NCBI GenBank assembly: GCA_030638325.1
Contig: DAOWEV010000210.1
Span: forward strand, 1 to 41,441
Length of the DNA: 41,441 nt
Source of the DNA: Bacteroidales bacterium
Lineage (GTDB): Bacteria; Bacteroidota; Bacteroidia; Bacteroidales; JAGOPY01
Direction of reading: 5' to 3'
The position numbers and the translations under genes were made by a program. This document shows, piece after piece, positions 156-41,441 of this stretch (positions are counted from its first letter, which is position 1; each line of letters starts with the position of its first letter). The notes beneath the pieces were generated by a model. It searched no databases, was not told the origin of the DNA, and saw only the letters and a list, made by a program, of their open reading frames with translations.

Positions 156-225
156 TTGCAGCTTGCGGGTTGCAAAATGAAACTCGTAACCCGTAACTCG
201 TATCCCATAACCCGTAAATAAAATC
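156..225 (+). repeat. Heptamer array AAC(C/T)CGT x5 with an inverted GGGTTGC-type arm and an AATAAAATC trailer
   Basis: Units at 181-215; the same layout recurs at 30781-30851. Confidence 0.8.
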
Positions 226-259
226 CTGACAATAATTCAACCAATTTGCAAATTCTTTG

Positions 260-267
260 TACTTTTG
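260..267 (+). promoter_or_regulatory. Bacteroidota sigma-A -7 box (TACTTTTG) for SRP RNA
   Basis: Matches TAnnTTTG, 4 nt before the RNA 5' stem; TTTG at 245-248 upstream. Confidence 0.75.
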
Positions 268-271
268 CAGC

Positions 272-368
272 GGGTAAGTCTTATGCGACCAGCTCCCGCT
301 GAATCCCCCCAGGTCCGGAAGGAAGCAAGGGTAGGCGGTTGTAGCGGTGCGACATAAGTAGCTTACCC
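272..368 (+). ncRNA. ffs: Signal recognition particle RNA (small bacterial, 4.5S type)
   Basis: Contains the conserved domain IV motif CAGGTCCGGAAGGAAGCA; terminal stem GGGTAAG..CTTACCC followed by a T-run. Confidence 0.92.
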
Positions 369-404
369 TTTTTTACTGAATATTCTTTGTAATTATACAT
401 ACTC

Positions 405-1013
405 ATGCTTTTAAAGATCTACCCCGACAATCCCAGCCAGAGGCTCATTCGGACAGTTATGGAATGTCTGAGCAATAATGGTATTGTGATCTTTCCAACA
501 GACACCATCTATGCCCTGGGATGTAATATTTTCAGTCCGAAAGCAATCGACAGGATTGCAAAGATCAAGGGAACCAAAAAAGAGAAAGCCAATTTCTCCT
601 TTTTGTTCTATGATCTGAGTCAACTCTCAGACTTCACCAAACCTCTCAGCAATGAAGTATTTAAGTTAATGAGACAGACGCTGCCCGGACCGTTTACATA
701 CATTCTTGAGGCCAGCAACAAAGTTCCCAAGATCTTCCACAACCGTAAAAAAACCCTCGGTGTCAGGATACCTGAAAACAACATCATCAGCGAGATCATC
801 CAGGAACTGGGCAATCCTTTGATGTCTACATCCATACGTGATGAAGATGAGATACTGGAATACACGACCGATCCTGAACTCATTTATGAAAAATACCGGC
901 ACCTGGTCGATATTGTCATCGACGGTGGTTATGGCGACAACCAGCCATCCACAGTGATCGACTGTACCGGTGGTGAGATCGAGATGATCAGGGAAGGGAA
1001 AGGGAGACTGTAG
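405..1013 (+). CDS. Sua5/YciO/YrdC family (threonylcarbamoyl-AMP synthase-like) protein
   Basis: Motifs PTDTIYALGC, LPGPFTYIL, GVRIP, LMSTS, IDGG and PSTVID. Confidence 0.92.
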   Translation: MLLKIYPDNPSQRLIRTVMECLSNNGIVIFPTDTIYALGCNIFSPKAIDRIAKIKGTKKEKANFSFLFYDLSQLSDFTKPLSNEVFKLMRQTLPGPFTYILEASNKVPKIFHNRKKTLGVRIPENNIISEIIQELGNPLMSTSIRDEDEILEYTTDPELIYEKYRHLVDIVIDGGYGDNQPSTVIDCTGGEIEMIREGKGRL

Positions 1014-1019
1014 GCAGTT

Positions 1020-1061
1020 GATTAACGATTAACGATTAACGATTAACGATTTTAGATTTTT
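1020..1061 (+). repeat. Heptamer array (GATTAAC)x4 plus 2 degenerate units
   Basis: Read directly; starts 6 nt after the upstream stop codon. Confidence 0.9.
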
Positions 1062-1158
1062 AAATTACCAGGTAAATCATTCACACTCTGAAATAAATCG
1101 AAGGGATGGGAAAGATAAAAATTTCTGATTTGCTTATTGCCAACTCAAAAAATCATCT

Positions 1159-2675: not shown

Positions 2676-2760
2676 GGATACTGAATGATGGAAGGATGGA
2701 AAAATGGGATTGTTGAATAATGCCTGCCTGGACAGACGGACAGGGAATAATGGAAAAATA
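2676..2760 (+). repeat. Degenerate 8-nt array (AATGATGG/AAGGATGG/AATAATGG) interrupted by a CCTGCCTG..GGACAGG mini-palindrome (2723-2744)
   Basis: Read directly; the units are degenerate. Confidence 0.5.
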
Positions 2761-2957
2761 ACTAACTCCGTCCTTTAGGGCGGAGAAAAAAATAAGAATA
2801 ATAACCGGGCTTTAGCCCAAAACTTATAATTATGTCCTATGTAAGAATTCGGTTACACTGTGTTTGGGGTACTAAAAGTGTAGTTTCGAAAAGATTAAGG
2901 GCTAAAGCCTGAAATTTTTGATATCCTTATCCCCGGCATGAATGCCGGGGTTAGTCA
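2759..2957 (+). mobile_element. Internally deleted IS200/IS605-superfamily (TnpA/RAYT-like Y1 transposase) element
   Basis: Outer IR TAACTAACTCCG / CGGGGTTAGTCA; hairpins at 2766-2785 and 2931-2950; inner IR GGGCTTTAGCCC (2807-2818) / GGGCTAAAGCC (2899-2909). ATG at 2832 gives MSYVRIRLHCVWGTK, resembling the TnpA N-terminal HxVWxTK motif. Confidence 0.75.
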
Positions 2958-3055
2958 ATTATCTACGCATATTCCGGATGAACCATTTTCATCATGCATA
3001 GCAAAAAAAGAACATAACCACCATCAAAAAAGGTGAATTTCTGATTCAAATTAAT

Positions 3056-3882: not shown

Positions 3883-3938
3883 TTGTATATTGTACATTGT
3901 AAATTGTAAACTGTAAATTGTAAACTGTAAACTGTAAA
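3883..3938 (+). repeat. Heptamer array (T/C)TGTAAA x8
   Basis: Eight contiguous in-phase units, the first two variant. Confidence 0.92.
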
Positions 3939-3963
3939 TTACAGGCAACTAACAATCAACAAA

Positions 3964-5274
3964 ATGAAAATAACAATTGTCGGAACCGGATATGTCGGCC
4001 TTGTAACAGGAGCCTGTTTTGCGGAGGTTGGTATCGATGTTACATGTGTTGATATTGATGAGAGAAAGATAGAGAACCTCAGGAAAGGAGTTATTCCGAT
4101 CTTTGAACCAGGCCTGGAAGAAATTGTCATTCGTAATATTGAGAAAGGCCGGCTGCATTTCACGACTGAACTGAAATCCTCACTGAAAGATACTGAGGTT
4201 ATCTTCAGCGCTGTCGGCACACCCCCCGATGAGGATGGCAGCGCCGACCTGAAATATGTTCTGGATGTTGCAAGGGAAGTCGGCAGGAACATGAATGGAT
4301 ACGTGCTGATAGTCACAAAAAGCACCGTTCCGGTGGGCACTGCAAAACGCGTTAAAGAAGCCATGCAGGAAGAGCTGGATGCGCGTGGCGAAAATCTTTC
4401 TTTCGATGTGGCCTCAAATCCTGAGTTCCTTAAAGAAGGAGCAGCCGTTGACGACTTCCTGAGGCCGGACCGTATAGTGATCGGGATTGAGTCTGAACGT
4501 GCTGAGGAGATCATGAGCAAACTGTATAAGCCGTTTACACTGAATGGGCATCCTGTGATCTTCATGGACATCGCATCCGCTGAGATGACCAAATATGCAG
4601 CCAATGCTATGCTGGCAACCAGGATCAGTTTTATGAACGATATTGCCAACCTGTGTGAAATTATCGGGGCTGATGTTGATAAAGTACGGAAAGGCATTGG
4701 CAGCGATCCCCGGATCGGCCATAAATTCATTTACCCGGGTATCGGTTATGGCGGATCGTGCTTCCCGAAAGATGTAAAAGCGCTCATAAAATCCGCAGAT
4801 GAAAACGGGTACAGCATGCGGATATTGAAATCCGTAGAGGATGTTAACGATGATCAGAAGTCAGTGTTATTCAATAAAGCCGTTCGACATTTCAAGGGAG
4901 ACCTGAAAGGGAAAACAATTGCTCTCTGGGGCCTCTCTTTCAAACCGCAGACTGATGATATGCGGGAAGCGCCTTCACTGGTGCTCATAGATAAATTCCT
5001 GAAAGCCGGTTGCAAAGTGAAAGCCTACGACCCGGTAGCCATGAAAGAAGCCAGGCGGATCATAGGCGACAGCATTACCTATTGCCGGGATCAGTACGAA
5101 GCCCTGGAAGGCGCCGATTGTTTGCTGCTAATCACTGAATGGAAGGAATTCAGGATCCCCAATCTGAAGGTCATGAAAGAAAAGATGCAAAGCCCGGTCA
5201 TTTTCGACGGCCGTAATATTTATGATGTTCAGGAAATGAAGGAAATGGGATTCGCCTATTACCGGATCGGGTAA
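3964..5274 (+). CDS. ugd: UDP-glucose 6-dehydrogenase
   Basis: Motifs GTGYVGL, KSTVPVGT, SNPEFLKEG, catalytic GYGGSCFPKD and FKPQTDDMREAP. Confidence 0.96.
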   Translation: MKITIVGTGYVGLVTGACFAEVGIDVTCVDIDERKIENLRKGVIPIFEPGLEEIVIRNIEKGRLHFTTELKSSLKDTEVIFSAVGTPPDEDGSADLKYVLDVAREVGRNMNGYVLIVTKSTVPVGTAKRVKEAMQEELDARGENLSFDVASNPEFLKEGAAVDDFLRPDRIVIGIESERAEEIMSKLYKPFTLNGHPVIFMDIASAEMTKYAANAMLATRISFMNDIANLCEIIGADVDKVRKGIGSDPRIGHKFIYPGIGYGGSCFPKDVKALIKSADENGYSMRILKSVEDVNDDQKSVLFNKAVRHFKGDLKGKTIALWGLSFKPQTDDMREAPSLVLIDKFLKAGCKVKAYDPVAMKEARRIIGDSITYCRDQYEALEGADCLLLITEWKEFRIPNLKVMKEKMQSPVIFDGRNIYDVQEMKEMGFAYYRIG

Positions 5275-6292: not shown

Positions 6293-6352
6293 ACAAGGTT
6301 GCGAACAAATTGATTAACGATTAACGATTGTAGATTAACGATTTAAGATTTA
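6293..6352 (+). repeat. Anchor ACAAGGTTGCGAACAAATT plus GATTAAC array
   Basis: 6293-6326 matches 7322-7355 at 32 of 34 nt. Confidence 0.85.
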
Positions 6353-6412
6353 TGGTATTATTAACTTTCGGATAGAAAATAATAAATAAGAAATAATAAA
6401 TAATAAATCAAA

Positions 6413-7278: not shown

Positions 7279-7472
7279 TCCCTGCACCCGTGCACCCAAA
7301 CACATAAACACCTATCGCAGAACAAGGCTGCAAACAAATTGATTAACGATTAACGGTAGGCGGTTGACGGTTGACGGTTGGCGGTGGGATAGTAGGACTG
7401 TAAGACGGTAGGATGGTAGGACTGATGGATTGTAATTCAAATAAGCGAATAAACAAATAAACGAATAAACAC
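7279..7472 (+). repeat. Composite spacer of five consecutive 7/8-nt arrays
   Basis: In order: CCCTGCAC-like 8-mers; anchor plus GATTAAC; GGTTGAC; ACGGTAGG-like 8-mers; RAATAAAC 8-mers. Confidence 0.8.
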
Positions 7473-7478
7473 AATAGT

Positions 7479-9282: not shown

Positions 9283-9521
9283 ACCACAAAGGCACACAAA
9301 GTATTTCACAAAGTACTTCACAAAGGATTAAAGAAAACATTTGATTATTATAATTATAGAAAATATTTCAAATGGCACAAATACTCACTTATTTGAAACT
9401 TTCAGGATGTTAGTCAGGCTTATTGGCAAACTGTAATGTCAGACAATTGAAAGACGGTATTAAACGGGTTATTCTTTAGTCCTTAGAGTGACTTTGTGAT
9501 ATCCTTTGTGCACTTTGTGGT
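9283..9521 (+). pseudogene. GxxExxY-family (PD-(D/E)XK-like) gene remnant inside CACAAAG/CTTTGTG inverted-repeat arrays
   Basis: 9372-9479 translates as MAQILTYLKLSGC*SGLLANCNVRQLKDGIKRVIL*, matching my recollection of the family C-terminus (AQLLxYLKxxxxxLGLLINF..LKxGIKR). Flanked by ACCACAAAG...CACAAAG (4 copies) and CTTTGTG x3 ending CTTTGTGGT. Confidence 0.78.
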
Positions 9522-9581: not shown

Positions 9582-9655
9582 CCCGTCTTCGGTCTTCGGA
9601 CTTCGGACTTCCGTCTCTCAACTCTCAACTCTCAACTCTTATCTCTCACGCTTCA
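9582..9655 (-). repeat. Continuous 7-nt phased array GAGTTGA then AAGTCCG, starting at the stop codon of the GreA-like gene
   Basis: Minus strand: GTTTTGA AGCGTGA GAGATAA GAGTTGA x3 GAGACGG AAGTCCG x2 AAGACCG AAGACGG. Confidence 0.9.
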
Positions 9656-10119: not shown

Positions 10120-10174
10120 CCTAACCCGGACAAACCGGAATTTTAAATTTTAAATTATTAATTTTAAATGTTTT
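10120..10174 (+). repeat. Anchor CCTAACCCGGACAAACCGG plus AATTTTA heptamer array (copy 1)
   Basis: 52 of 55 nt identical to 40535-40589. Confidence 0.9.
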
Positions 10175-10850: not shown

Positions 10851-10882
10851 AATTTTAAATTTTAAATTTTAAATTATAAATT
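10851..10882 (+). repeat. AATTTTA heptamer array directly after the stop codon
   Basis: Read directly. Confidence 0.75.
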
Positions 10883-11066
10883 TTGAGCCCACTACGAAAA
10901 GTAGTGAAAACTAAATATAGCCACAGATTATTCACAATATTACTTATTTTCAAAGGTGTTCATGAAATCACTTCGTTAAGTTCACAGATTATTAAAAATT
11001 AAATCTGTGAATCTGTGGCATGTTCTTCAATTTTTTTAGATAAACATCTTTTCGGTCTGGACTCAA
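10883..11066 (+). mobile_element. MITE-like element with nested inverted repeats and no ORF
   Basis: Outer IR TTGAGCCCACTACGAAAAG / CTTTTCGGTCTGGACTCAA (15 of 19); inner GCCACAGATT..TTCACAGATT / AATCTGTGAATCTGTGGC. Confidence 0.55.
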
Positions 11067-11258: not shown

Positions 11259-13778
11259 ATGCTTACACTGCGAGATCTCAAAGAGGGTGAGAAAGGGATC
11301 ATCACGAAGGTCAAAGGTCGTGGTGCATTCCGTAAGCGTATCACCGAGATGGGTTTCATCAGAGGAAAATTGGTGACTGTCATCAGAAGCGCCCCTTTTC
11401 AAGACCCTGTGGAGTACCAGATATTAAAATCGTTTGTTTCAATACGACGTAGTGAAGCCAACCTCATTGAAGTCATTAGTGAAGCAGAAGCCAGGAAACA
11501 ACTGGGTGACGCTCAATACGAAGGAGTCATTACAGATGAGCAATTGAAGATCAGCGCCCATGAGAAAGGCCGTCAGATCGAAGTGGCCCTGGTTGGAAAT
11601 CCCAATTCCGGGAAGACTACACTCTTTAACTTTGCCTCCCACTCAAGAGGACATGTAGCCAACTATGGTGGGGTTACGATCGACTCCAAGCTTGCAACAT
11701 TCAAACAGGATGGATACGTTTTTAATATTACAGACCTTCCCGGTACCTATTCCATCACTGACTATTCACCTGAAGAACTGTTTGTCAGAAAACATATCCT
11801 GGGCACTTTCCCGGATGTTGTCATCAACGTGATTGACGCCTCCAACCTGGAGCGAAACCTGTATCTGACCACTCAACTGATCGACATGGACATAAAAGTG
11901 ATCGTGGCGTTGAATATGTATGATGAGCTTATTCTGAAGGGCGACCATTTTGATTATAAAAGCCTGGGAAACATGCTCGGAATACCTTTTGTCAGGACAG
12001 TAGCCACCAGGGGCAAAGGCATTAAAGAGCTGTTCCGGAAAGTCATTGATGTTTACGAGGACAAAGACCCGACGGTGCGGCATATCCACATCAATTACGG
12101 TGATGAAATAGAACAGTCGGTCAGGAGCGTACAGGAACCCCTCAGGGAAAACAAGATACTGATTGACAAGACATCTTCACGATATTATGCCATTAAACTT
12201 CTGGAGAAAGACAAGTCCACTGATTTTTCACTTTCCAGTCTTGATAATTACGAGGCGATCCGGAAAAGGTGTGATGAAGAGATAGGGAGACTTGAAAATA
12301 TCCTGGGGGAAGATAGCGAGACACTCATAACAGATGCCAAGTATGGGTTTATTGAAGGAGCGCTTAAGGAAACCTATACACCGGCCAGGATAGAAAAAAA
12401 ATCAATCAGCCAGAAGCTGGATTCCTTCTTCACCGGGAAATACCTGAGTTATCCCATTTTTGTTGCATTTATGTGGGTGATGTTCCAGACAACTTTCATT
12501 GTTGGCAAATACCCTGTTCTATGGATTGAAAGCCTGGTTGCCGTTACAGGCAATGCCGTTGACATAATACTACCTGAAAGCATGTTTAAAGACCTGCTGA
12601 TCGAAGGTATCATCGGGGGAGTAGGAGGTGTCATAGTGTTCCTTCCGAATATCCTGATCCTGTTTTTTTTCATATCGATCATGGAAGACTCCGGTTATAT
12701 GGCGAGGGTGGCATTCATTTTAGACAAGCTGATGCACAAAATAGGTTTGCACGGCAGGTCTTTCATCCCGCTGCTCATGGGCTTCGGCTGTAATGTACCA
12801 GCCATTATGGCTACCCGTACCATCGAAAACAAGACCGACCGGCTGGTGACCATGCTGGTTACGCCGTTCATGTCATGCAGTGCCCGTTATCCTATTTATA
12901 TCCTGCTCATCAGCGCCTTTTTCACAAGCCACCATGGAACGATATTGTTCGGCATCTATGCGTTTGGCATCATGCTGGCAGGAGCTGTTGCATGGTTATT
13001 AAAAAACACGCTCCTCAAATCACAGGAAATGCCCTTCGTGATGGAGTTACCTCCTTACCGGTTCCCTACCGTAAAAAGTATCATGAAGCATACCTGGTTC
13101 AAAGGTTCGCAGTATCTCCGCAAGATCGGTGGTGTGATCCTGATCGCCTCGGTGATTATCTGGGCATTGGGTTATTTTCCTAGAAACACCGGGGTAAATG
13201 ATCATTATGAAGTGATGATATTGCAGCTAACAGAAAAATATAACGATAAGATCTCTGTGGCAGCTCAGTGGGATCCGGAAAGTGTAGAAGGATTAAAAAA
13301 TGAGATGACTGACAGCATCTCAGGCCTGGAATCTGAGAAACAACGGTTACAGCAGGAATATTCATTTATCGGCCGCCTTGGTAAATTCATTGAGCCTGTA
13401 ATAGCACCACTGGGATTCGACTGGCGCACGGGAGTCAGCCTCATTGCAGGCGCCGCTGCCAAAGAGGTGGTGGTAAGCACCATGGGTGTTCTTTATCAAT
13501 CCCATACAGAAAAAGACACCAATGGACTGATCTCAACATTACGCAACCTGACTTACAACAGTGGTAAACTGAAAGGTCAGAAGGTATTCTCCCCCCTCAT
13601 CGCCCTTACCATCATGCTCTTCGTCCTTATCTATTTCCCGTGCATCGCTGTCATTGCCACTATCAAAAAGGAGTCCGGGGCATGGAAATGGTCATTGTTC
13701 CTAATGGTTTACACTACGGCAATGGCCTGGACAATATCCTTTCTCTTTTATCAGGGAGGAACGCTGTTGGGGTTTTAG
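11259..13778 (+). CDS. feoB: Ferrous iron transporter FeoB with N-terminal FeoA fusion
   Basis: FeoA SH3-like N-terminus (R.xEMGF..G..V.VIR.APFxDP); GTPase motifs GNPNSGKT, DLPGTYS and NMYD; membrane motifs GFGCNVPA, PFMSCSAR and YFPC. Confidence 0.96.
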   Translation: MLTLRDLKEGEKGIITKVKGRGAFRKRITEMGFIRGKLVTVIRSAPFQDPVEYQILKSFVSIRRSEANLIEVISEAEARKQLGDAQYEGVITDEQLKISAHEKGRQIEVALVGNPNSGKTTLFNFASHSRGHVANYGGVTIDSKLATFKQDGYVFNITDLPGTYSITDYSPEELFVRKHILGTFPDVVINVIDASNLERNLYLTTQLIDMDIKVIVALNMYDELILKGDHFDYKSLGNMLGIPFVRTVATRGKGIKELFRKVIDVYEDKDPTVRHIHINYGDEIEQSVRSVQEPLRENKILIDKTSSRYYAIKLLEKDKSTDFSLSSLDNYEAIRKRCDEEIGRLENILGEDSETLITDAKYGFIEGALKETYTPARIEKKSISQKLDSFFTGKYLSYPIFVAFMWVMFQTTFIVGKYPVLWIESLVAVTGNAVDIILPESMFKDLLIEGIIGGVGGVIVFLPNILILFFFISIMEDSGYMARVAFILDKLMHKIGLHGRSFIPLLMGFGCNVPAIMATRTIENKTDRLVTMLVTPFMSCSARYPIYILLISAFFTSHHGTILFGIYAFGIMLAGAVAWLLKNTLLKSQEMPFVMELPPYRFPTVKSIMKHTWFKGSQYLRKIGGVILIASVIIWALGYFPRNTGVNDHYEVMILQLTEKYNDKISVAAQWDPESVEGLKNEMTDSISGLESEKQRLQQEYSFIGRLGKFIEPVIAPLGFDWRTGVSLIAGAAAKEVVVSTMGVLYQSHTEKDTNGLISTLRNLTYNSGKLKGQKVFSPLIALTIMLFVLIYFPCIAVIATIKKESGAWKWSLFLMVYTTAMAWTISFLFYQGGTLLGF

Positions 13779-13804
13779 AGTTGAGAGTTGAGGGATGAGA
13801 GTTG
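13779..13804 (+). repeat. AGTTGAG heptamer array in phase with the feoB stop codon
   Basis: GTTTTAG AGTTGAG AGTTGAG GGATGAG AGTTG. Confidence 0.75.
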
Positions 13805-19511: not shown

Positions 19512-19513
19512 AA

Positions 19514-19548
19514 ATTGTCGATTGTCAATTGTCAGTTGTCGATTGTCA
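19514..19548 (+). repeat. ATTGTC(A/G) heptamer x5
   Basis: Starts 2 nt after the stop codon; the same family occurs at 32612-32639. Confidence 0.9.
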
Positions 19549-19607
19549 ATTTTTAATGATCATTATTTATTAATACCGGATAGATAATAATGCTTAGATA
19601 GCGAAAT

Positions 19608-22013: not shown

Positions 22014-22202
<189 letters not shown>

Positions 22203-22216
22203 CCAATTTCTATTTT

Positions 22217-23242
22217 CTAATTTCTAACAACCCGGTCAAGCCTGTTAAGTCCCTCAATAGCACGATCATAGGCTGGGTCAAGTTGCAGGCATTTCTTATA
22301 ATCCTTCCTGGATTCAGTATAATTATTAGACAGCTCGTAACTGTACCCACGGTTAAACCAGGCGTCAACATATTTTGTGTTACGGTCGATGGCATCTGAG
22401 AAATACCTTATTGCCAGTTGGAAATCTCTCAGGTAAACGAGGTTGATGTATCCCAGGTTATAATAAGCCTCTGTATAATCGGGGTCAATGGTCAGCAGGT
22501 TCTCATAGTTCCGTATGGCATTATCAAACTCTTCATTTTGCTGGTAAAACATCCCCAGCATATAATAGCCCTCAGGGTCATTGGGCTGACTATTGATAGC
22601 ATTTTCAAAATATCCGATAGCCAGCCGGTCATTTTTTAATGAATAAAGATAACCCAACTGCATAAAGACTTCGTAATAGGTTTGGTCCTGCCCGGTGGCG
22701 ATCATAAAATTACGTACGGCAGAGGCAGTATCTCCTGTCTCCATCAGCGCATAACCCCTGATAAAATATGCAACAGGATTGATGTCATCCAGAGCCAGGG
22801 CTTTTTTTACATATTGAAATGTTTTGTCGTAATCCCTCAACACAAGATATATCTCTGCCTGTTTCAGCAGTCCTTCATTGTTTTCAGGATCCAGTTCTTC
22901 GACTTTCTGCAAGGCTTCCAGGCTGTTAGCAATTTTGTCCATGGCCAGATAGATATCCGAAAGGGTAATAAAATAAACCGCATTCCGGTTATCCAGTTGA
23001 ATTGCCTGATTGATATCGCCAAGAGCGCCATTTAACTCCTGGTCGACAAGAAGAAGCCGGGCCCGTTCATTGTATAGCTTTGCATTTCCGGGATCTTCTT
23101 TCAGTTTTTTGCCAATCTGCTCTATGCGTGTCACCTGACTTGCACCTGAATCATGGCTGTCACCACGATCAGGCGAAGGCACACAAGCCTGCAACAGGCT
23201 AAATAAAATAAACCAAAATAATATGCAGCGCATTTGCTTCAT
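22217..23242 (-). CDS. Tetratricopeptide-repeat lipoprotein
   Basis: Lipobox LLQAC; about 8 TPR-like 34-aa repeats (AYYNLG, AWFNRG, A..ldP). Confidence 0.88.
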   Translation of the reverse strand: MKQMRCILFWFILFSLLQACVPSPDRGDSHDSGASQVTRIEQIGKKLKEDPGNAKLYNERARLLLVDQELNGALGDINQAIQLDNRNAVYFITLSDIYLAMDKIANSLEALQKVEELDPENNEGLLKQAEIYLVLRDYDKTFQYVKKALALDDINPVAYFIRGYALMETGDTASAVRNFMIATGQDQTYYEVFMQLGYLYSLKNDRLAIGYFENAINSQPNDPEGYYMLGMFYQQNEEFDNAIRNYENLLTIDPDYTEAYYNLGYINLVYLRDFQLAIRYFSDAIDRNTKYVDAWFNRGYSYELSNNYTESRKDYKKCLQLDPAYDRAIEGLNRLDRVVRN

Positions 23243-23383
23243 TATGCAGTCAGATTAAAACTAAGGTATTCGGAAATTTCGGACATCAGCAACCAATAAC
23301 ATTCGACTTGCAACCCATAACCAGGCTCTTAAAAAGCCAAACATACCATCCACCTGGACGGATCAAATTGGATGTTTTCGAAA

Positions 23384-23478
23384 TTCAATTCCCGCATAGC
23401 GGTTTCAATTCCTAATTCGTAATTCCTAATTCGTAATTCCTAATTCTTAATTCCTAATTCCTAATTGATTTAGTATCT
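23384..23478 (-). repeat. Anchor AGATACTAAATCAATT plus (AGGAATT/ACGAATT) array and GAAACCGCTATGCGGGAATTGAA trailer
   Basis: Same anchor at 9233 and 30722; same trailer at 30752-30774. Confidence 0.88.
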
Positions 23479-23512
23479 GTTTAATAGATAAACTTTAACT
23501 AGAAACCACTGT

Positions 23513-24715: not shown

Positions 24716-24820
24716 CTCTCAACCCACTTCTCACCTCTTCGGACTTCCGACTTCGGACTTCCGACTTCGGACTTCCGACTTCTCTCAACTCTCATCTCTC
24801 AACTCTCATCTCTCATTTCA
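24716..24820 (-). repeat. GAG(T/A)TGA and AAGTC(G/C)G arrays overlapping the nth 3' end
   Basis: The last nth codons (EMRDES*) are encoded by repeat units; CGG/CCG alternation gives a 14-nt super-period. Confidence 0.9.
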
Positions 24821-25720: not shown

Positions 25721-25757
25721 CCAATTGATTGATAAATATGGTTCAGCCACATATTTA

Positions 25758-25850
25758 ACGGAAGTCGGAAGTCCGAAGTCAGAAGTCGGAAAGGGTTTAA
25801 CAACTTCTGTCTTCCGTCTCCGGACTTCCGACTACAATAATGGCAATGCC
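25758..25850. repeat. Inverted GGAAGTC/GACTTCC heptamer arrays plus AATAATGGCAATGCC anchor
   Basis: Read directly; can form a long hairpin; the anchor is 5 nt from the stop codon of the small ORF. Confidence 0.85.
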
Positions 25851-27011: not shown

Positions 27012-29852
27012 ATGCAGAAGAAACCGTTTCAGCAGTTAGATCCGAAGCATTTCATCCTCATTAAAGGAGCCGATATGCATAACCTAAAGCATGTGGATGT
27101 GGCGCTTCCAAGAAACAGTTTCATTCTGATAACCGGCCTTTCCGGGTCAGGAAAATCCAGTCTTGCATTTGACACCCTCTATGCCGAGGGCCAGCGCAGG
27201 TACGTGGAAAGTCTCAGTTCCTATGCACGCCAGTTCCTGGGCCGCATGAGTAAGCCCAGGGTAGAGTATATCAAAGGGATATCTCCGGCAATTGCCATCG
27301 AACAAAAGGTGAATACACGGAACCCCAGGTCTACCGTAGCCACATCAACCGAGATTTTCGAGTACCTTAAGTTATTGTATGCGCGTATCGGAAAAACCTA
27401 TTCTCCCGTCTCCGGAAAACCGGTAAAACGCCATACAGTAAGTGATGTCACCGATCATATCATGAGCCTGCCTGAACAAACCAGGGTTTATATTTACAGT
27501 CCTTTTTACCTCGCTGAAAAACGCAGCAGCAGGGATCAGCTTACTATCTACCTGCAACAAGGCTATAACCGGATTTATTATGGTAAAGAGTTTCTCCGGA
27601 TTGAGGATGTTCTTGAAGATAACTTGAAAATTGAACCTCAGAAAACCCGGATCGTGATCGACAGGCTAATCATAAACAATCATGATAAAGACCAGCAATC
27701 AAGGGTTGCCGACTCAGTCCAGACAGCCTTTTATGAAGGCCATGGATACTGTATTGTAGAAAATGAGAAGGCTGGAAAGAAAAAAAGAAACACATTTTCC
27801 AATAAGTATGAACTGGACGGCATTGAATTTGAAAAGCCTTCCGTGAATCTGTTCAGCTTTAACAATCCTTACGGGGCCTGCAAGCGTTGTGAAGGTTTCG
27901 GAAGCATCATCGGCATCGATGAGGACCTGGTCATCCCCAATAAAACCCTTACTATCTTTGAGAATGCCATTGCCTGCTGGAGAGGAGAAAAGATGGGTAA
28001 ATGGAAAGATGAACTCGTGATGCATGCCTATAAGTTCGATTTCCCTATTCACAGGCCTGTTTATGATCTGACAGAAGCACAAAAACAACTGCTCTGGACC
28101 GGCAACAAATATTTCCATGGCCTGAATGAATTTTTCAAGTATGTTGAAGAAAAGGCCTATAAAATACAATACCGGGTGATGCTTTCCAGGTACAGAGGCA
28201 AGACCCTTTGTCCGGAATGTCGTGGCACCAGGTTAAGGAAGGATGCAAACTATGTCAAGGTCGGGGGGAAATCCATCAGCGATATCCTGCTGATGCCGGT
28301 ATATGATGCCCTGCCTTGGTTTCAGAAAATAAAGCTGAATGACCATGAGCAGCAGATCGCCAGCCGGCTGCTGACGGAGATCACCAACAGGCTGCGTTTC
28401 CTGGATGAAGTCGGGCTGGGATACCTGAGCCTGAACCGGCAATCCTCCACACTGTCAGGAGGAGAATCCCAGAGGATCAACCTGGCTACCTCGCTGGGCA
28501 GCAACCTGGCAGGCTCCATGTACATTTTGGATGAGCCTAGCATCGGATTGCACCCGCGCGACACATACCGGTTGATCGATGTACTGCAGCAGCTCCGCAA
28601 TCTCGGGAATACTGTCATCGTCGTGGAGCATGATGAAGATATGATACGGGCGGCTGATCATATTGTGGACATTGGCCCCCTGGCCGGATCAAAAGGAGGT
28701 GAGATAGTATTTGAAGGATCTTTTCAAGAGCTGGTAAACAGCAACAAAGGCCTTACCGCCAGATACATCAACAAAGAGCTCAGTATTGAATTACCTGAAA
28801 AGCGTCGCCCCTGGAAAGAATATATCGAGGTGCACGGGGCCCGGGAAAACAACCTGAAGGGTATTGACATAAAGTTTCCTTTAAACATATTGACAGTCGT
28901 AACAGGTGTCAGCGGTTCGGGCAAAACATCTCTTGTAAAATCCATCCTGTTTCCTTCCATTAAAAAGATATACGGGGGTTATGGCGAAAAGACAGGCAAA
29001 CTCTCAAGGCTTAGCGGTGATATCGACCGCATTGCTTCCATTGAATTCGTGGACCAGCATCCCATCGGGAGATCATCGAGATCCAATCCTGCCACTTATC
29101 TGAAAGCCTATGACGATATCAGGGCGTTATTCGCTACTCAGCAGCTGGCAAGGGTCAGGGGATACAAGCCCGGATTCTTTTCATTCAACATACCCGGCGG
29201 CCGGTGTCAGGAATGTGAAGGAGAAGGGGTTGTAAAGATAGAGATGCAGTTCATGGCCGACCTGTACCTCACTTGCGAATCCTGTGGCGGCACGAGGTTC
29301 AGAGATGAGGTTCTGGACATTAAATACAAAGGAAAAACCATTGACGATATACTGCACCTGACTGTCAACCAGGCAGTGGATTTTTTTCATGACCCGGAAG
29401 GGAAAAGCTCGCTTAACAGGCGCATCACCGACAAATTAAAGCCACTACAGGATGTCGGACTGGGTTATCTGGAACTGGGGCAGTCCTCCAGCACCCTGAG
29501 CGGCGGTGAAGCACAGCGCATCAAGCTCGCATTTTTCCTGTCAAAAGGAAGCAATCAACAACCAACCCTGTTCATTTTCGATGAACCCACTACCGGCTTA
29601 CATTTTCATGACATCAATAAACTGCTTAACTCCCTTTACGCTTTGATTGAAAAAGGTCACACCATCATTGTCATTGAACACAACCAGGAGGTCATTAAAT
29701 GCGCCGACTGGATCATAGACCTGGGGCCCGATGGCGGGGATGAAGGAGGCCACCTGGTTTTTGAAGGCGTTCCGGAAGAGCTGGTAAATTGCAAGAAATC
29801 CTTTACCGGGAAATTTCTTCGCGAAAAATTGAGAAGCATGAAACGTGAATAG
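27012..29852 (+). CDS. uvrA: Excinuclease ABC subunit A
   Basis: Two ABC ATPase modules (GLSGSGKSS/LSGGESQR and GVSGSGKT/LSGGEAQR); zinc-finger CxxC pairs. Confidence 0.97.
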   Translation: MQKKPFQQLDPKHFILIKGADMHNLKHVDVALPRNSFILITGLSGSGKSSLAFDTLYAEGQRRYVESLSSYARQFLGRMSKPRVEYIKGISPAIAIEQKVNTRNPRSTVATSTEIFEYLKLLYARIGKTYSPVSGKPVKRHTVSDVTDHIMSLPEQTRVYIYSPFYLAEKRSSRDQLTIYLQQGYNRIYYGKEFLRIEDVLEDNLKIEPQKTRIVIDRLIINNHDKDQQSRVADSVQTAFYEGHGYCIVENEKAGKKKRNTFSNKYELDGIEFEKPSVNLFSFNNPYGACKRCEGFGSIIGIDEDLVIPNKTLTIFENAIACWRGEKMGKWKDELVMHAYKFDFPIHRPVYDLTEAQKQLLWTGNKYFHGLNEFFKYVEEKAYKIQYRVMLSRYRGKTLCPECRGTRLRKDANYVKVGGKSISDILLMPVYDALPWFQKIKLNDHEQQIASRLLTEITNRLRFLDEVGLGYLSLNRQSSTLSGGESQRINLATSLGSNLAGSMYILDEPSIGLHPRDTYRLIDVLQQLRNLGNTVIVVEHDEDMIRAADHIVDIGPLAGSKGGEIVFEGSFQELVNSNKGLTARYINKELSIELPEKRRPWKEYIEVHGARENNLKGIDIKFPLNILTVVTGVSGSGKTSLVKSILFPSIKKIYGGYGEKTGKLSRLSGDIDRIASIEFVDQHPIGRSSRSNPATYLKAYDDIRALFATQQLARVRGYKPGFFSFNIPGGRCQECEGEGVVKIEMQFMADLYLTCESCGGTRFRDEVLDIKYKGKTIDDILHLTVNQAVDFFHDPEGKSSLNRRITDKLKPLQDVGLGYLELGQSSSTLSGGEAQRIKLAFFLSKGSNQQPTLFIFDEPTTGLHFHDINKLLNSLYALIEKGHTIIVIEHNQEVIKCADWIIDLGPDGGDEGGHLVFEGVPEELVNCKKSFTGKFLREKLRSMKRE

Positions 29853-29927
29853 TGAAGCGTGAAATGTGAGATGTGAAGAGATGATAATTGCTCGCTGCCC
29901 ATCTCAACTCTCAACTCTCAACTCTCA
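29834..29927. repeat. Opposed heptamer arrays filling the convergent uvrA/rlmB gap
   Basis: Plus strand AGCATGA AACGTGA ATAGTGA AGCGTGA AATGTGA GATGTGA (overlaps the uvrA end); minus strand GATTTGA (rlmB stop) GAGTTGA x3. Confidence 0.88.
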
Positions 29928-30671
29928 AATCTCCACCTGCCGCTGCCTCACCACCTCGTACAATATCATCCCGGCAGAAACAGAGACATTAAATGATGCA
30001 ATGCTACCCTTCATGGGGATGCTTACCGCCTCGTCGGCCAGCTCCAGGATGGTTCGTGAGATACCTTTTTCTTCAGAGCCAATGATGATGGATAGAGGTA
30101 CTTTAAGATCAGCCTGGTACGGCATCAGGTCTGATTTTTCAGTTGCTGCCAGGATATAAAGCCCGCTCTCTTTCAGGTATTTAATAGCGTTGGCCAGGTT
30201 GGAAGAGCGGCACACCGGCACCTTGTGCAGGGCGCCGGCAGATGTCTTCACAGCATCCTCGTTGATCATGGCGCTGCCCTTTTCCGGAACAATCACTGCA
30301 TGTACGCCGGTCCCTTCTGCCGTACGTACTATGGCTCCCAGGTTCCTGACATCCGTGATCCCTTCCAGCACCATCACCAGCGGGGTCTCCCCTTGCTCGA
30401 ACACAAATGGCAAAATATCTTCAATATGCTGATAGGTGATGGCTGAGATAAAGGCTATCACCCCCTGATGGTTCTTCCTGGTAACCCTGTTCAGCTTTTC
30501 GATGGGCACATACTGGTATGGGATGCCGGTATTTTTGACCAGTCCCATCATCTCGGAAGACAACGGGCCGCCTTTCAGGCCCTTTTTCACCAGCACCTTA
30601 TCAATCTCCTTCCCTGCCATGATTGCTTCGATAACCGGCCTCAGTCCATAAATAAAATTTTCTTTGCTCAA
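29925..30671 (-). CDS. rlmB: 23S rRNA (G2251-2'-O)-methyltransferase, TrmH/SpoU family (TTG start)
   Basis: Motifs NHQGV, DVRNLGAIVRTA, GSEEKGIS and IPMKGSIASFNVSVSAG; -7 box TATTTTTG at 30697-30704. Confidence 0.94.
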   Translation of the reverse strand: MSKENFIYGLRPVIEAIMAGKEIDKVLVKKGLKGGPLSSEMMGLVKNTGIPYQYVPIEKLNRVTRKNHQGVIAFISAITYQHIEDILPFVFEQGETPLVMVLEGITDVRNLGAIVRTAEGTGVHAVIVPEKGSAMINEDAVKTSAGALHKVPVCRSSNLANAIKYLKESGLYILAATEKSDLMPYQADLKVPLSIIIGSEEKGISRTILELADEAVSIPMKGSIASFNVSVSAGMILYEVVRQRQVEI

Positions 30672-30721: not shown

Positions 30722-30871
30722 AGAAACTAAATCAATTACGAATTAGGAATTGAAACCGATATGCGAGAATTGAAACCACTTGCAGGTTGCAGGTTTCGAC
30801 TCGCAACCTGCAACCCGTAACCCGTAACTCGTAACCCGTAATAATAAAATCTCAACCCTTGATTCGCATTA
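30722..30871 (+). repeat. Anchored element: AGAAACTAAATCAATT, GAATTAG units, AGGTTGC/AACCCGT hairpin and TCAACCCTTGATTCGCATTA end
   Basis: Left end shared with 9233 and 23478; right end 18 of 20 identical to 9538-9557. Confidence 0.82.
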
Positions 30872-30876
30872 ATAAC

Positions 30877-32542: not shown

Positions 32543-32611
32543 TAAAGAATCCCCGCACATAGGACTTAGCTTGGAGGAAGCACTGCGTAAGGGTGCATAG
32601 AGCGTTTATTA

Positions 32612-32720
32612 ATTGTCGATTGTCAATTGTCAATTGTCGATTTTTTTCTCACGATTCGCTTCTCACGTCTTCGGTCTTCGGTCTTCCGACTTCGGACTTT
32701 CTCTCAACTCTCAACTCTCA
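32612..32720. repeat. Composite ATTGTCR x4, CTTCGGT/CTTCCGA and CTCTCAA arrays ending at the GWxTD stop codon
   Basis: Read directly; the minus strand reads GCGGTGA (stop) GAGTTGA GAGTTGA. Confidence 0.88.
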
Positions 32721-35435: not shown

Positions 35436-35445
35436 ATCTGGGGAT

Positions 35446-35530
35446 CGGAAGTCCGAAGTCGGAAGCAGGTCAACCGTCGACCGTCAACCGTCAACTGTTC
35501 CCATCTTCGGACTTCCGACTTCGGTCTTCC
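35446..35530. repeat. Nested array: CGGAAGT arm, CAACCGT loop and inverted ACTTCCG arm
   Basis: Read directly; lies between convergent genes. Confidence 0.85.
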
Positions 35531-35557
35531 ATTAAATTCTGGGTTGAATATAGCAGA

Positions 35558-36072: not shown

Positions 36073-36095
36073 ATTCAACTATTCAACTATTCAAC
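36073..36095 (-). repeat. 8-nt array TAGTTGAA x~3 directly after the YoaP stop codon
   Basis: Plus strand ATTCAACT ATTCAACT ATTCAAC. Confidence 0.65.
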
Positions 36096-36096
36096 C

Positions 36097-36982: not shown

Positions 36983-37020
36983 CAATTTAAAATTTATAAT
37001 TTATAATTTAACATTTAACA
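36983..37020 (+). repeat. AATTTA(A/T)-type heptamer array upstream of the lgt promoter
   Basis: AATTTAA AATTTAT AATTTAT AATTTAA CATTTAA; -7 box TATCTTTG at 37030-37037. Confidence 0.65.
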
Positions 37021-39014: not shown

Positions 39015-39035
39015 GAGTCGTGAAAATTGCTTTAT

Positions 39036-39112
39036 CAGGATACAGAATACAGGTTGCAGGTTACAGGTTGCAGGTTACAGGTTGCAGGTTACAGGTTGCA
39101 GGTTGCAGGTTG
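39036..39112 (+). repeat. CAGGTT(G/A) heptamer x11 with 14-nt alternation
   Basis: Eleven contiguous in-phase units, the first two variant. Confidence 0.93.
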
Positions 39113-39177
39113 AGTGAAGTTAAACCCCGTAGGGACACTAATCATATAAATTAACCATTGAAAGTAAAAAACTAAAG

Positions 39178-40539
39178 ATGATGAAAGGCCTTTTAATTAT
39201 ATTGTTTATCATAGCTTCCTTCTGGAATTATTCGGGCGGGCAGGATACAGATGATTCCATGAAGAAAGTCAGGATCTATAAATTCGATATCAAGAAGGAG
39301 ATCGCTCCGCCGGTATGGCATTCCACCAAACTGGCCTTTGCAGAAGCCGAAGCTATGGATGCCGACATCGTGCTCCTCCACCTCAACACCTATGGCGGGA
39401 TGCTCGAGTCGGCCGATTCCATCCGGAACCGGATATTGGAATCGGAAATACCGGTATATGTTTTCATCGATCACAATGCTGCTTCTGCGGGTGCCCTGAT
39501 ATCGATCGCCTGCGACAGCATTTACATGGTTCCCGGGGCAACCATCGGGGCGGCGACAGTCGTGGATCAAAAGGGGGAAGTGGTACCTGACAAATACCAA
39601 TCATACATGCGTGCCATGATGCGTTCCACCGCCGAGGCTACCGGCCGTGATCCTGACATAGCCCAGGCTATGGTAGACCCCAGGATAAAGATCGAAGGCA
39701 TCGTCGATTCCGTGAGTGTGTTGACTTTTACTTCCAGCGAGGCGCATCAGCATGGTTACTGCGAAGCTATTTTAAATAATATTCCGGAACTCCTGGAACA
39801 TGCGGGTATTGAAGATTATGAGATCACCGAACAGGAACTGAGCCCACTTGATAAGATCATCAGCTTTCTCATTCATCCCATGGTGAGTGGCTTGCTGATC
39901 ATGGTCATTGTGGGCGGAATATATTTTGAGCTTCAGTCGCCTGGTGTAGGGTTTCCGTTGGGCGCTGCCATCGTGGCTGCGATCATCTATTTTGCACCAT
40001 TGTACCTGGAAGGAATGGCAGATCACTGGGAGATAGTCATGTTTGTTGTGGGTGTGATCCTGATAGCTGTTGAGATCTTCGCCATACCCGGCTTCGGGAT
40101 TGCCGGGGTCAGCGGTATTCTCCTGATCGTTCTCGGACTAACGCTCAGTTTGATCGGGAATGTCGGGTTTGATTTCACAGGCATCAACGCGACTGCAATC
40201 TTTTCTTCATTTTTTCTCGTGATAACGTCAATTTTCCTGGCCATGATACTGTCATACTTTATCACCAGAACCATGTTCACCGAAAACTTTCTTTTCAAGT
40301 CGCTGGCACTGAATACCGTACAAAATTCCGAAGAAGGATACTCGGCCTCATTCCAGGCGTATAAAAATATGATCGGCAAGCAGGGCGAGGCCTTCACTAT
40401 GCTAAGGCCTGCCGGCAAGGTCATCATAGAAGGAAACGTTTACGATGCAACAGTCCTGTCGGGCTTTGTCGAAAAAGGGGACCGGATCGAGGTCGTAAAA
40501 TATGAAACCTCACAATTGTTTGTCCGGAAAATAACCTAA
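39178..40539 (+). CDS. NfeD-family membrane-bound serine protease (ClpP-like domain, TM segments and OB-fold)
   Basis: Motifs LNTYGG, AASAGALIS, GATIGAA, EIFAIPGFG and the C-terminal G.A.T.LRPAGKV..YDA. Confidence 0.9.
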   Translation: MMKGLLIILFIIASFWNYSGGQDTDDSMKKVRIYKFDIKKEIAPPVWHSTKLAFAEAEAMDADIVLLHLNTYGGMLESADSIRNRILESEIPVYVFIDHNAASAGALISIACDSIYMVPGATIGAATVVDQKGEVVPDKYQSYMRAMMRSTAEATGRDPDIAQAMVDPRIKIEGIVDSVSVLTFTSSEAHQHGYCEAILNNIPELLEHAGIEDYEITEQELSPLDKIISFLIHPMVSGLLIMVIVGGIYFELQSPGVGFPLGAAIVAAIIYFAPLYLEGMADHWEIVMFVVGVILIAVEIFAIPGFGIAGVSGILLIVLGLTLSLIGNVGFDFTGINATAIFSSFFLVITSIFLAMILSYFITRTMFTENFLFKSLALNTVQNSEEGYSASFQAYKNMIGKQGEAFTMLRPAGKVIIEGNVYDATVLSGFVEKGDRIEVVKYETSQLFVRKIT

Positions 40540-40589
40540 CCCGGATAAACCGGAATTTTGAATTTTAAATTATAAATTTTAAATGTTTT
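40535..40589 (+). repeat. Anchor CCTAACCCGGATAAACCGG plus AATTTTA array (copy 2), containing the nfeD stop codon
   Basis: 52 of 55 nt identical to 10120-10174. Confidence 0.9.
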
Positions 40590-40749
40590 GCCAAAAAATG
40601 ACAAGATATTTTTTTTAAGTCGCTAAAATGTTAAATTCACAAATTGATCTATTGCGAAGCCAAAAGTAAAATTGCTCTGGCCCTCCGGTCTTCGGACTTC
40701 CGACTTGCTCTTTAGGACGATAGGAATTAATCAGGATAAAACCATCAAC

Positions 40750-41259
40750 ATGAACAACCGTATTGAATTAATCCGGGGCGACATTACAAAACTGCAGGTA
40801 GATGCCATTGTGAATGCTGCCAACTCCAGCCTGCTGGGGGGCGGTGGTGTGGATGGGGCCATTCACAGGGCCGCCGGACCGGAGCTCGTGGCAGAATGCC
40901 GGGCGCTCCACGGATGTGCTACCGGAGAAGCAAAGATCACCAAAGGATATAAGTTACCGGCCAAATATGTAATACATACCGTTGGCCCGGTTTTCGGCAG
41001 AAATCCTTCCCGCCAGGAAGAGCAGTTGAAGGGGTGCTATTACAACAGCCTGAAGCTGGCTGTCGAAAACAATTGCAAGACCATAGCATTCCCAAATATC
41101 AGCACCGGGGCCTACGGTTATCCGAAATCAGAAGCTGCCATGATTGCAGTCAATGCTGCCAAGGCTTTTCCGGACAATAACAACTCTATTGAAAAGGTCA
41201 TTTTTGTTTGTTTTGATGATGAAAACTATGCAATCTATAAGAAGCTGTTAAACAGCTAA
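40750..41259 (+). CDS. ymdB: Macrodomain O-acetyl-ADP-ribose deacetylase (start corrected to ATG 40750)
   Basis: Motifs GDIT, AIVNAANSSLLGGGGVDGAIHRAAG, VIHTVGP and AFPNISTGAYGYP. Confidence 0.93.
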   Translation: MNNRIELIRGDITKLQVDAIVNAANSSLLGGGGVDGAIHRAAGPELVAECRALHGCATGEAKITKGYKLPAKYVIHTVGPVFGRNPSRQEEQLKGCYYNSLKLAVENNCKTIAFPNISTGAYGYPKSEAAMIAVNAAKAFPDNNNSIEKVIFVCFDDENYAIYKKLLNS

Positions 41260-41360
41260 GCCACAAACTGACATTGTGTCTTATTAATGATGCAGAATGG
41301 CAGGGACAGCTGCAACCAACAATCCCAACCTCCTCCGACATTACGGAATTTCACTTCCTT

Positions 41361-41441
41361 CAACCTGCAACCTGATAACTGTTTCCTGATAACTGTTTCC
41401 TGATAACTGTTTCCTGATAACTGTTTCCTGATAACTGTTTC
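41361..41441 (+). repeat. CAACCTG x2 running into five perfect copies of the 14-mer CCTGATAACTGTTT (truncated by the window end)
   Basis: Units at 41371, 41385, 41399, 41413 and 41427. Confidence 0.95.

Follow-up and report, generated by a model that had tools for sequence, protein, structure and literature searches.

Seven-nucleotide tandem arrays in the gene spacers of a Bacteroidales genome as candidate arms of hairpin cassettes related to four-helix-bundle genes

The window analysed here, an entire contig (C150) of 41,441 bases from a metagenome-assembled genome (MAG) of a Bacteroidales bacterium (assembly G000), carries in its gene spacers a dense system of tandem arrays with a 7-nucleotide (nt) unit. 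We consider it somewhat better than an even chance (about 0.55) that these arrays are the paired or orphaned arms of palindromic hairpin cassettes, similar to the intervening sequences (IVS) of 23S rRNA, and of far more numerous gene-less derivatives of such cassettes. The complete form would consist of a small four-helix-bundle gene between a G-rich 5′ array and its reverse-complement C-rich 3′ array, and the derivatives would comprise hairpins, single arms at gene ends and arrays built into modules resembling miniature inverted-repeat transposable elements (MITEs). The assembly is 2.75 Mb in 258 contigs, 78.7% complete, with 42.3% G+C; its RecA shares no more than 80% identity with any named record, Bacteroidales MAGs giving the best matches, and the sequencing runs holding the window sequence are labelled as cold seep or marine sediment metagenomes.

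Tandem arrays were located with Tandem Repeats Finder (TRF), and overlapping rows were collapsed into arrays. The window gave 70 TRF rows, 37 with period 7 and 12 more with period 14 or 21, which collapsed into 35 period-7 arrays, distributed over 21 internal spacers and the two ends of the contig, in agreement with the more than 20 intergenic loci claimed in the initial annotation of this DNA, and all eleven unit types listed there were present. Intrusion into genes was occasional, as had also been stated, with seven arrays extending 2–20 nt into last codons (FeoAB, PBP1C, TPR, Nth, UvrA, SpoU and GWxTD); the sole array well inside a gene, in RmlD (7184-7202, 2.7 copies), is probably due to chance. 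Genome-wide, period 7 accounted for 1240 TRF rows or 1138 collapsed arrays (~414 arrays per Mb), period 8 for 540 rows or 463 arrays and period 6 for 66 rows or 64 arrays, as compared with 62, 61 and 13 rows for periods 7, 8 and 6 in a Markov-3 simulated genome. At 3.5 copies or more, 937 period-7 rows were found in G000 and 1 in the Markov-3 control. Of the 1138 arrays, 886 (78%) lay within the 12.5% of the genome outside open reading frame (ORF) proxies, whereas periods 6, 9 and 12 were mainly coding, these fractions being approximate because the gene model is our own ORF proxy; about a tenth of the spacer DNA is held by such arrays. Autocorrelation of intergenic DNA was raised at lags 7 (0.352), 14 (0.328), 21 (0.318) and 28 (0.304) over a baseline near 0.28, with a shoulder at lag 8 (0.313), whereas coding DNA showed 3-periodicity only and simulated DNA was flat. 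Both approaches thus uphold the proposed excess of period 7 over other periods, which lies mostly in spacers.

Every unit class was strongly oriented relative to the nearest gene end, with a sign that flips between 3′ and 5′ ends. Stop codons within the units were considered as the cause and rejected; ORF calling does not explain the orientation because classes without stops in either sense were equally biased. In top-strand reading, one form is found in arrays at the left of a spacer and its reverse complement in arrays at the right, irrespective of how the flanking genes are oriented. For class AACTCTC, the two orientations numbered 6:28 on the left and 28:1 on the right (Fisher p 8e-11), and for AATTAGG, AAATCCT, AACGATT and AACCGTC the dependence on side gave p values of 1e-7 to 1e-4. 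When the three remaining spacer types served to learn the polarity, 411 arrays were concordant and 122 discordant, and the rule held in all four gene arrangements; in the window 24 were concordant and 4 discordant, by a polarity table that includes the window itself (1.5% of the genome). A class-free version, which asks only whether G exceeds C, gave 153:90 on the left and 64:172 on the right in G000 (p 3e-15), and 30:14 versus 13:29 (p 0.001) in 17 pooled relatives that have other units. A purine-majority rule held in G000 but failed in the relatives (32:32 and 28:28), and the G/C imbalance of the units by itself was discarded as not significant in the top classes (1.45 vs 1.13 ± 0.32), only its side-dependent version holding. 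A hairpin whose 5′ arm is G-rich and whose 3′ arm is C-rich has just this geometry, and it reads alike on both strands.

Pairing of arrays within spacers points the same way. The outermost left and right arrays were inverted copies of each other in 66 of 344 multi-array spacers, versus 14.4 ± 3.8 under shuffled pairing, and direct copies in 6 versus 4.9. Four loci of the window (30775-30850, 35440-35535, 25755-25840 and 24730-24820) fold with z scores of -4.1 to -5.4, two further loci are weak (1-150 and 22090-22190), and five single arrays did not fold beyond chance. An element of ~170 nt, dispersed in the genome and represented in the window by a copy (30722-30873) and a variant (23323-23488), has as its core a hairpin of TTGCAGG-type versus AACCTGC-type units. 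The alternating GAAGTCG/GAAGTCC array at 24737-24782 is partly self-complementary and folds alone (z -4.3).

The link to a gene family came from matches to PF05635/TIGR02436 (23S rRNA intervening-sequence/four-helix-bundle protein, S23p/Avd-like), of which G000 has 5. Three of these genes are enclosed by a 7- or 8-nt unit arrayed in inverted orientation on the two sides, and the other 2 are flanked by an array on one side only. The units at the five cassettes are AAATTGT, GAGAGTT, GACGGTT/CGGTAGG, one of ACGGGTT type and an 8-mer, largely from "free" classes with unique flanks, and on the coding strand of the gene the 5′ arm is the G-rich form. PF05635 matches occurred in 26 of 30 relatives, members of the same family having 8-22 each. 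At 27 loci from 24 relatives, arrays stood on both sides in 20 cases, on one side in 6 and on neither in 1; in 15 of the 27 the two sides were inverted copies of one unit, as against 0 of 46 intervals shifted by 1 kb. Arrays of 8 nt flanked both sides in 6 of the 27, close to the genome-wide 463:1138 ratio of periods 8 and 7. The cassettes lie between protein-coding genes, not in 23S rRNA. Several of the matches in relatives carry in-frame stops, so the copies decay. One site holds a cassette in five genomes of two genera (C104:2011-2328 in G000; L143, L145, L147 and L150), flanked upstream by a conserved leader and downstream by one and the same conserved gene, with units that differ and arms that match; it is possible that this is an insertion hot spot, or an old cassette with co-evolving arms. 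The initial annotation had named four-helix-bundle and GxxExxY families as genes that such arrays might enclose, and the check was positive for both, the latter as a remnant in a MITE-like element. GxxExxY (TIGR04256) has 13 matches in G000, nearly all of only ~35 C-terminal residues in short open frames.

Arrays and four-helix-bundle genes also co-occur across genomes. From each of 21 relatives in 16 families of the order, 26-200 kb were sampled, counting arrays of at least 3.5 copies, and the density of period-7 arrays followed that of PF05635 matches (Spearman 0.74, p 1e-4; 0.69 for family averages, n=16; 0.61 outside the window's own family f1, n=15). Four genomes without a PF05635 match (98-100% complete) had 0 arrays in 374 kb, and genomes with two or more matches had 136 arrays in 1387 kb. 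In G000, 180 of 1110 arrays (16%) belong to the exact unit class of an arm of its own five cassettes, versus 0-2% for arms from other genomes; the share for own arms was 24% in G001 and 25% in G004. Exact classes were used here, since matching at one mismatch or fewer was too permissive (61-78% of arrays matched any large arm set). Within G000, an unusual abundance of the classes linked to four-helix-bundle genes was not significant (by our own estimate, about 0.1).

Several observations weigh against reading the arrays as cassette arms. An inverted array of the same unit shares the spacer with only 171 of 1149 arrays, so that most would have to be orphan arms, and of 654 spacers with arrays 310 contain just one. 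The window itself contains no four-helix-bundle gene, and the 79%-complete genome has only 5, as against 1138 arrays. Same-unit arrays enclose 21 of the 194 genes flanked on two sides (13 direct, 8 inverted), roughly the chance expectation. The families AACCTGC, AAATCCT, AATTAGG and AACGATT, which occur inside MITE-like elements, stand beside no four-helix-bundle gene in G000. One relative (G023) has 6 PF05635 matches yet 0 arrays in 100 kb. The cross-genome correlation comes from small samples of relatives that are not independent of one another and is supporting evidence, not proof. The arm set of G001 also matches 54% of the arrays of G002 and 27% of those of G003 (small samples); units are therefore shared within the family, and the specificity for the own genome is not clean. 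Finally, the reverse direction could apply, with genes captured by, or inserted into, pre-existing hairpins.

If the arrays are nevertheless cassette arms, the orphan arrays would descend from cassettes, and the period of 7-8 nt would be set by the element, perhaps as the footprint of a protein on each unit, rather than by the host replicase; slippage would act on the arrays only secondarily. New units may arise by point mutation followed by re-amplification, with which the 14-nt higher-order repeats are consistent. Transcribed arm pairs would form long stems (about -22 to -40 kcal/mol) that could be cut, or could terminate transcription, as in the IVS of 23S rRNA, and this may make insertions tolerable right at gene ends. 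A much bolder extension, which we put forward only tentatively and regard as doubtful, is that each four-helix-bundle protein binds its own 7/8-nt unit and drives or protects its spread and expansion through genomic spacers, so that the heptanucleotide excess in bacteria, including the short tandemly repeated repetitive sequences (STRRs), would largely be the footprint of one family of selfish hairpin cassettes and not a property of polymerases.

It is unlikely that the arrays are plain long simple sequence repeats (LSSRs) which arose in place, wherever selection allows, by slippage of a polymerase that prefers steps of ~7 nt. Heptamers are the commonest class of long simple sequence repeats in many genomes, for which a polymerase footprint has been suggested (Mrazek 2007, via PMC4679880 and PMC4692102). 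Array length does change in whole-unit steps: among Logan contigs from four runs of four studies, one foreign contig (run X5) bridges the 24737-24816 array with a 14-nt deletion equal to two units, and in the same run the hairpin at 25759..25835 is ~40 nt longer (at 25792-25831; 78 vs 38 nt between flanks). In addition, arrays are imperfect with 14-nt higher-order repeats, and some classes have nearly always unique flanks, recurring flanks being seen at 9 of 76 AACTCTC, 3 of 44 AACCGTC and 1 of 38 AAATTGT arrays. Slippage, however, does not lead one to expect the polarity described above, nor four genomes of the same order with 0 arrays in 374 kb when relatives reach 25 per 100 kb. Half of all arrays (583 of 1138, 51%) fall into 11 of 193 unit classes, and some arrays have been copied between loci as pre-formed blocks: the GATTAAC block has the same layout with one variant unit in 8 of 10 listed loci (window 6312-6343), and because that layout and variant recur it was copied whole. 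Elements also come and go in spacers between related genomes. Relatives have arrays equally dense with quite different units, and GAGAGTT x3, with 112 occurrences in G000, has 0-2 in each of 30 relatives (the reversed-pattern control, itself just a rotation of this unit, is uninformative). The comparison of orthologous spacers that had been suggested was run on the uvrA-spoU spacer, in which arrays are present in four of eight genomes (G000, G012, G004 and G010), all with different units and two as inverted pairs, and absent from the other four (G006, G009, G001 and G013). Recurrent classes, copied blocks, polarity and the link to four-helix-bundle cassettes together sustain the earlier view that these are not independent slippage microsatellites.

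A second alternative, which we judge quite unlikely, makes the arrays parts of non-autonomous elements of the MITE or REPIN kind, moved by transposases encoded elsewhere (IS200/IS605-type Y1), with the four-helix-bundle genes as passengers. G000 has 8 Y1_Tnp genes above cut-off, of IS200/IS605 type and ~150 aa, on C168, C239 (two), C43, C132, C202, C19 and C176. A 60-nt array-masked flank matched at least 2 other loci for 353 of 1083 arrays, about a third, a count possibly somewhat inflated by residual unmasked units; the share was high for AACCTGC (40/57), AAATCCT (38/42), AATTAGG (26/43) and AACGATT (22/54). Much of the window's spacer DNA matches at least three other loci. Some arrays lie within or next to MITE-like elements that have terminal inverted repeats; short multi-copy elements of this kind are the ~310-nt element with the GxxExxY remnant and another dispersed element, which has AAATCCT-type repeats in inverted orientation at both ends, and most arrays are not of this kind. 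The small stem-loop of the ~170-nt hairpin element resembles one beside two Y1 genes, and copies of that element adjoin two of the eight. Against this, most Y1 genes are flanked by GC-rich palindromes in the style of repetitive extragenic palindromic (REP) sequences, not by heptamer arrays, and 730 of 1083 arrays, two thirds, have no recurring flank. The one Y1 gene of eight that was tested scored 78.7 with the IS200/IS605 model (cut-off 55) and 30.5 with that of REP-associated tyrosine transposases (RAYTs; cut-off 80). Y1 and array densities were weakly correlated (rho 0.36, p 0.11; 0.30 outside family f1), and one relative (G017) has 4 Y1 matches and 0 arrays. The RAYT link proposed in the initial annotation was accordingly not borne out by flanks, densities or model. 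A link to reverse transcriptases, also proposed there, fared no better, the only one found in G000 being a group II intron reverse transcriptase/maturase (C160:38-1336, 355 bits). A diversity-generating retroelement (DGR) was likewise rejected, as the Avd model gave 22 bits (cut-off 80) and no reverse transcriptase is adjacent.

That the arrays are binding sites for one host protein, of the cold-shock/S1-type oligonucleotide-binding fold or a nucleoid protein, kept to regulate neighbouring genes, appears very unlikely. CspB has been reported to bind one heptamer per protein (PMC4679880), and the arrays do lie near gene ends, a 3′ end being the closest for 470 and a 5′ end for 198. A common skeleton, NRRTTRN, had been proposed for the different units; it fits 7 of the 11 and 13 of the 25 commonest classes and 51 of all 193, versus 2.6, 5.1 and 30.8 after shuffling within units, an enrichment of ~2.5-fold obtained on the same classes to which the skeleton was fitted, with 14 possible phases by which 10-13% of all heptamers fit. 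An unsupervised phase search gave 4.52 bits versus 4.04 ± 0.19 for 25 classes and 4.51 versus 3.77 ± 0.13 for 43, an excess over free choice of phase of about 0.5-0.75 bit, in a search that slightly favoured the observed sets by more restarts and in which many classes are one mutation apart. The enrichment over shuffling is thus weak and real, but a single skeleton implying one binding protein did not stand: the excess is small, the skeleton is a post hoc fit, units are highly diverse both inside a genome and from one genome to another, and those of relatives are unrelated. In our reading, the skeleton arises mostly because each unit was written in its G-rich, 5′-arm form. Moreover, orientation tracks spacer side and not the direction of transcription, and the orthologous uvrA-spoU spacer is array-free in half of the genomes. 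Of the common generating mechanism or binding protein put forward earlier, a common origin or architecture is retained and the single protein is not.

Assembly or binning artefact of the MAG is unlikely to the point of being negligible, for although both ends of the contig lie in arrays and most arrays interrupt Logan contigs, as the word depth of hundreds to thousands in array bins against ~10 for unique sequence would explain, the same array-bearing spacers occur in contigs of all four runs, one contig bridges an array, arrays lie internal to the 41-kb contig with intact flanking genes, and independently assembled relatives show the same phenomenon. Array lengths given here are those of this assembly.

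The features of the window are listed in Table 1. Its genes are ordinary housekeeping genes together with Bacteroidota hallmarks (type-IX secretion tail, GWxTD, DUF5063, DUF4293 and an alpha-2-macroglobulin/PBP1C pair). In that pair, at 13938-21971, a penicillin-binding protein of PBP1C type comes after a bacterial alpha-2-macroglobulin of 1857 aa; the arrangement is the usual one, here with an AATTGTC array in between. An Rfam scan found no rRNA in the window and no family covering the arrays.

Table 1. Arrays, dispersed elements and RNA genes of the window (x, number of unit copies; SRP, signal recognition particle)
Position	Feature	Strand	Details
1..226	Contig-end block		GGGTATAA x8.9 (4-76), TTCCCCTAT x7.7 (86-154), AACCCGT x5.3 (181-217); first two arrays roughly complementary, fold of 1-150 z -2.2; at most 14 other loci match
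265-372	Bacteroidales small SRP RNA		Rfam, 106.7 bits; three arrays precede the gene
1020..1051	GATTAAC x4.6		6 nt past Sua5/YrdC stop; left-arm form, left side of spacer; 1011-1061 matches at most 54 other loci
1185-1258	tRNA-Lys(ttt)		Rfam
3883..3940	TTGTAAA x8.3 (class AAATTGT)		Right side of spacer, before UDP-glucose dehydrogenase gene; class also flanks a four-helix-bundle gene on contig C33
6312..6408	GATTAAC block and AAATAAT x4.6		Block with one GATTGTA variant unit (6312-6343); AAATAAT at 6377-6408
7341..7476	Compound run		GATTAAC x2.1, ACGGTTG/ACGGTAGG ~x9, CAAATAAA x4.8; ACGGTTG/CGGTAGG units also make up the 5′ arm of a four-helix-bundle cassette (contig C178)
9252..9564	MITE-like dispersed element, ~310 nt	+	Terminal inverted repeats, subterminal inverted 12-nt repeats; decayed GxxExxY (TIGR04256) ORF remnant with internal stop (9369-9473); at most 19 other loci; 17 other genomic matches of at least 120 nt (alignment)
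9585..9648	GTCTTCG x4.6 then CTCTCAA x4.9		Abuts stop of 153-aa gene; right-arm forms, right side; fold not beyond chance
10139..10169	AATTTTA x4.4		Left side of spacer
10851..10884	AATTTTA x4.9		1 nt past DUF5063 stop; opens 220-nt dispersed segment 10851-11070
13777..13804	AGAGTTG x4.0		Overlaps FeoAB stop codon; left-arm form
19513..19551	AATTGTC x5.6		1 nt past alpha-2-macroglobulin stop
22016..22227	Spacer almost all arrays		AGACAGA x5.3, GAGAGTT x4.7, GAAGTCG-type, ACTTCGG x4.7, AATTTCT x3.3; ACTTCGG units pair with preceding units; 22090-22190 folds with -33.7 kcal/mol, z -2.3
23323..23488	Dispersed element		At most 70 other loci; ends in AATTCCT/AATTCGT x8.6 (23407-23466)
24737..24816	CTTCGGA/CTTCCGA alternating x6.6, then TCTCTCA/ACTCTCA x5.1		14-nt higher-order unit; enters last nth codons
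25587..25611	AACTTTC x3.6		Discordant with polarity rule
25759..25835	Gene-less hairpin		CGGAAGT x4.7 opposite its own imperfect reverse complement; -37 kcal/mol, z -5.4
29833..29933	Convergent uvrA/spoU spacer		GAAGCGT/GAAACGT ~x6 into last uvrA codons; TCTCAAC x4.6 into last spoU codons
30722..30873	Copy of ~170-nt dispersed hairpin element		Conserved flank, TTGCAGG x2.3, loop, AACCTGC/AACCCGT x4-5; -22.4 kcal/mol, z -4.4
32611..32720	AATTGTC x4.6, GTCTTCG x4.7, CTCTCAA x2.9		Up to GWxTD stop
35444..35530	Gene-less hairpin		GGAAGTC-type, loop with GTCAACC x3.9, CTTCCGA x3.7; -40.4 kcal/mol, z -4.1
36073..36095	ATTCAACT x2.9		Period 8
36984..37018	AATTTAA x5.0		Right-arm form, right side
39050..39112	CAGGTTG/CAGGTTA alternating x9		14-nt higher-order unit, 98% match
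40554..40584	AATTTTA x4.4		Followed by dispersed non-array segments (40529-40739)
41371..41441	CCTGATAACTGTTT x5.1		Period 14; runs off contig end

A few further observations concern single loci. At 1-154, G-tract arrays of GGGTATAA type stand opposite C-tract arrays of TTCCCCTAT type, with a unit length that ranges over 7 to 9 nt as the G or C run grows or shrinks, and these tracts could form a G-quadruplex. At 24737-24782 and 39050-39112, two unit variants strictly alternate, giving perfect 14-nt higher-order repeats; the unit class of the latter recurs in a distant Bacteroidales MAG (L003, recA locus, RecA 80% identical), a contig of which ends in CAGGTTA x10 (5137-5206). The dispersed spacer segments 10851-11070 and 40529-40739 (10-19 other loci) begin at or beside AATTTTA arrays. 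A non-array segment of ~370 nt at 2683-3054, upstream of a TylF-like methyltransferase gene, is likewise a dispersed element, with matches at 11 other loci at most.

STRRs in the strict sense are the named units of heterocystous cyanobacteria, the host here being a Bacteroidales, and the likeness considered is one of architecture. The traits shared with heptanucleotide LSSRs and STRRs are the tandem 7-nt unit, the mostly intergenic position and several multi-locus families per genome; in themselves the arrays belong to a kind already described, here in a new host from cold seep or marine sediment and at the very high density given above. An excess of heptamers among long simple repeats has been described, with abundance in cyanobacteria, Xanthomonas, Burkholderia and others, and published heptamer repeats vary in length and sequence between close relatives, some occurring as inverted pairs (PMC4679880, PMC4692102). 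As far as the available text of those papers goes, the polarity, the enclosure of four-helix-bundle genes and the cross-genome co-occurrence are shown only here; a literature search, outside of which lay supplements and most subscription journals, found no link between heptamer repeats and PF05635/TIGR02436 and no side-of-spacer polarity. TAACTGA direct repeats are intergenic in marine Beggiatoaceae, cyanobacteria and five Bacteroidetes, have other heptamers in the same spacers, are absent from orthologous spacers of close relatives and break contigs (PMC4679880). In that work a single unit was treated, mostly just upstream of start codons, and translational control was proposed (PMC4679880), whereas the arrays here have many units, lie nearer stops than starts and are oriented by spacer side.

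The cassettes resemble ORF-bearing 23S rRNA IVS in being small selfish elements with a PF05635 ORF and complementary ends able to form a stem. The IVS of Coxiella burnetii carries an S23p ORF, and its excision by RNase III has been reported (PMC4990558). They differ from IVS in lying between protein genes, in having tandem 7/8-nt arrays as arms and in that most copies have no ORF. With REP/REPIN sequences and MITEs, the arrays share being short, palindromic, intergenic and highly repeated, the presence of Y1 genes and, for some, terminal inverted repeats; unlike REP/REPINs, they are tandem, of variable copy number and with mostly unique flanks, and the Y1 genes here go with other, GC-rich palindromes. 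PF05635 has been described as resembling Avd of DGRs (PMC10053308), the model of which the four-helix-bundle proteins match weakly, as given above. The arrays are not a clustered regularly interspaced short palindromic repeat (CRISPR) array, the units being contiguous, 7-8 nt long and with no spacers between them.

Reports of heptanucleotide repeats in bacteria go back decades, and the 7-nt excess among long simple repeats has been explained only speculatively, by polymerase slippage. G000 is an extreme case, with three regularities that slippage does not predict: 1) polarity by spacer side, 2) the same architecture around four-helix-bundle genes, and 3) array-free relatives without those genes. 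Since the arrays break short-read assemblies, they also matter for the quality of MAGs. The reading proposed here offers a testable origin for bacterial 7-letter repeats; if it is true, much "junk" spacer DNA in many phyla would become readable as the debris of one kind of element, and the very large orphan protein family PF05635/TIGR02436 would gain a role.

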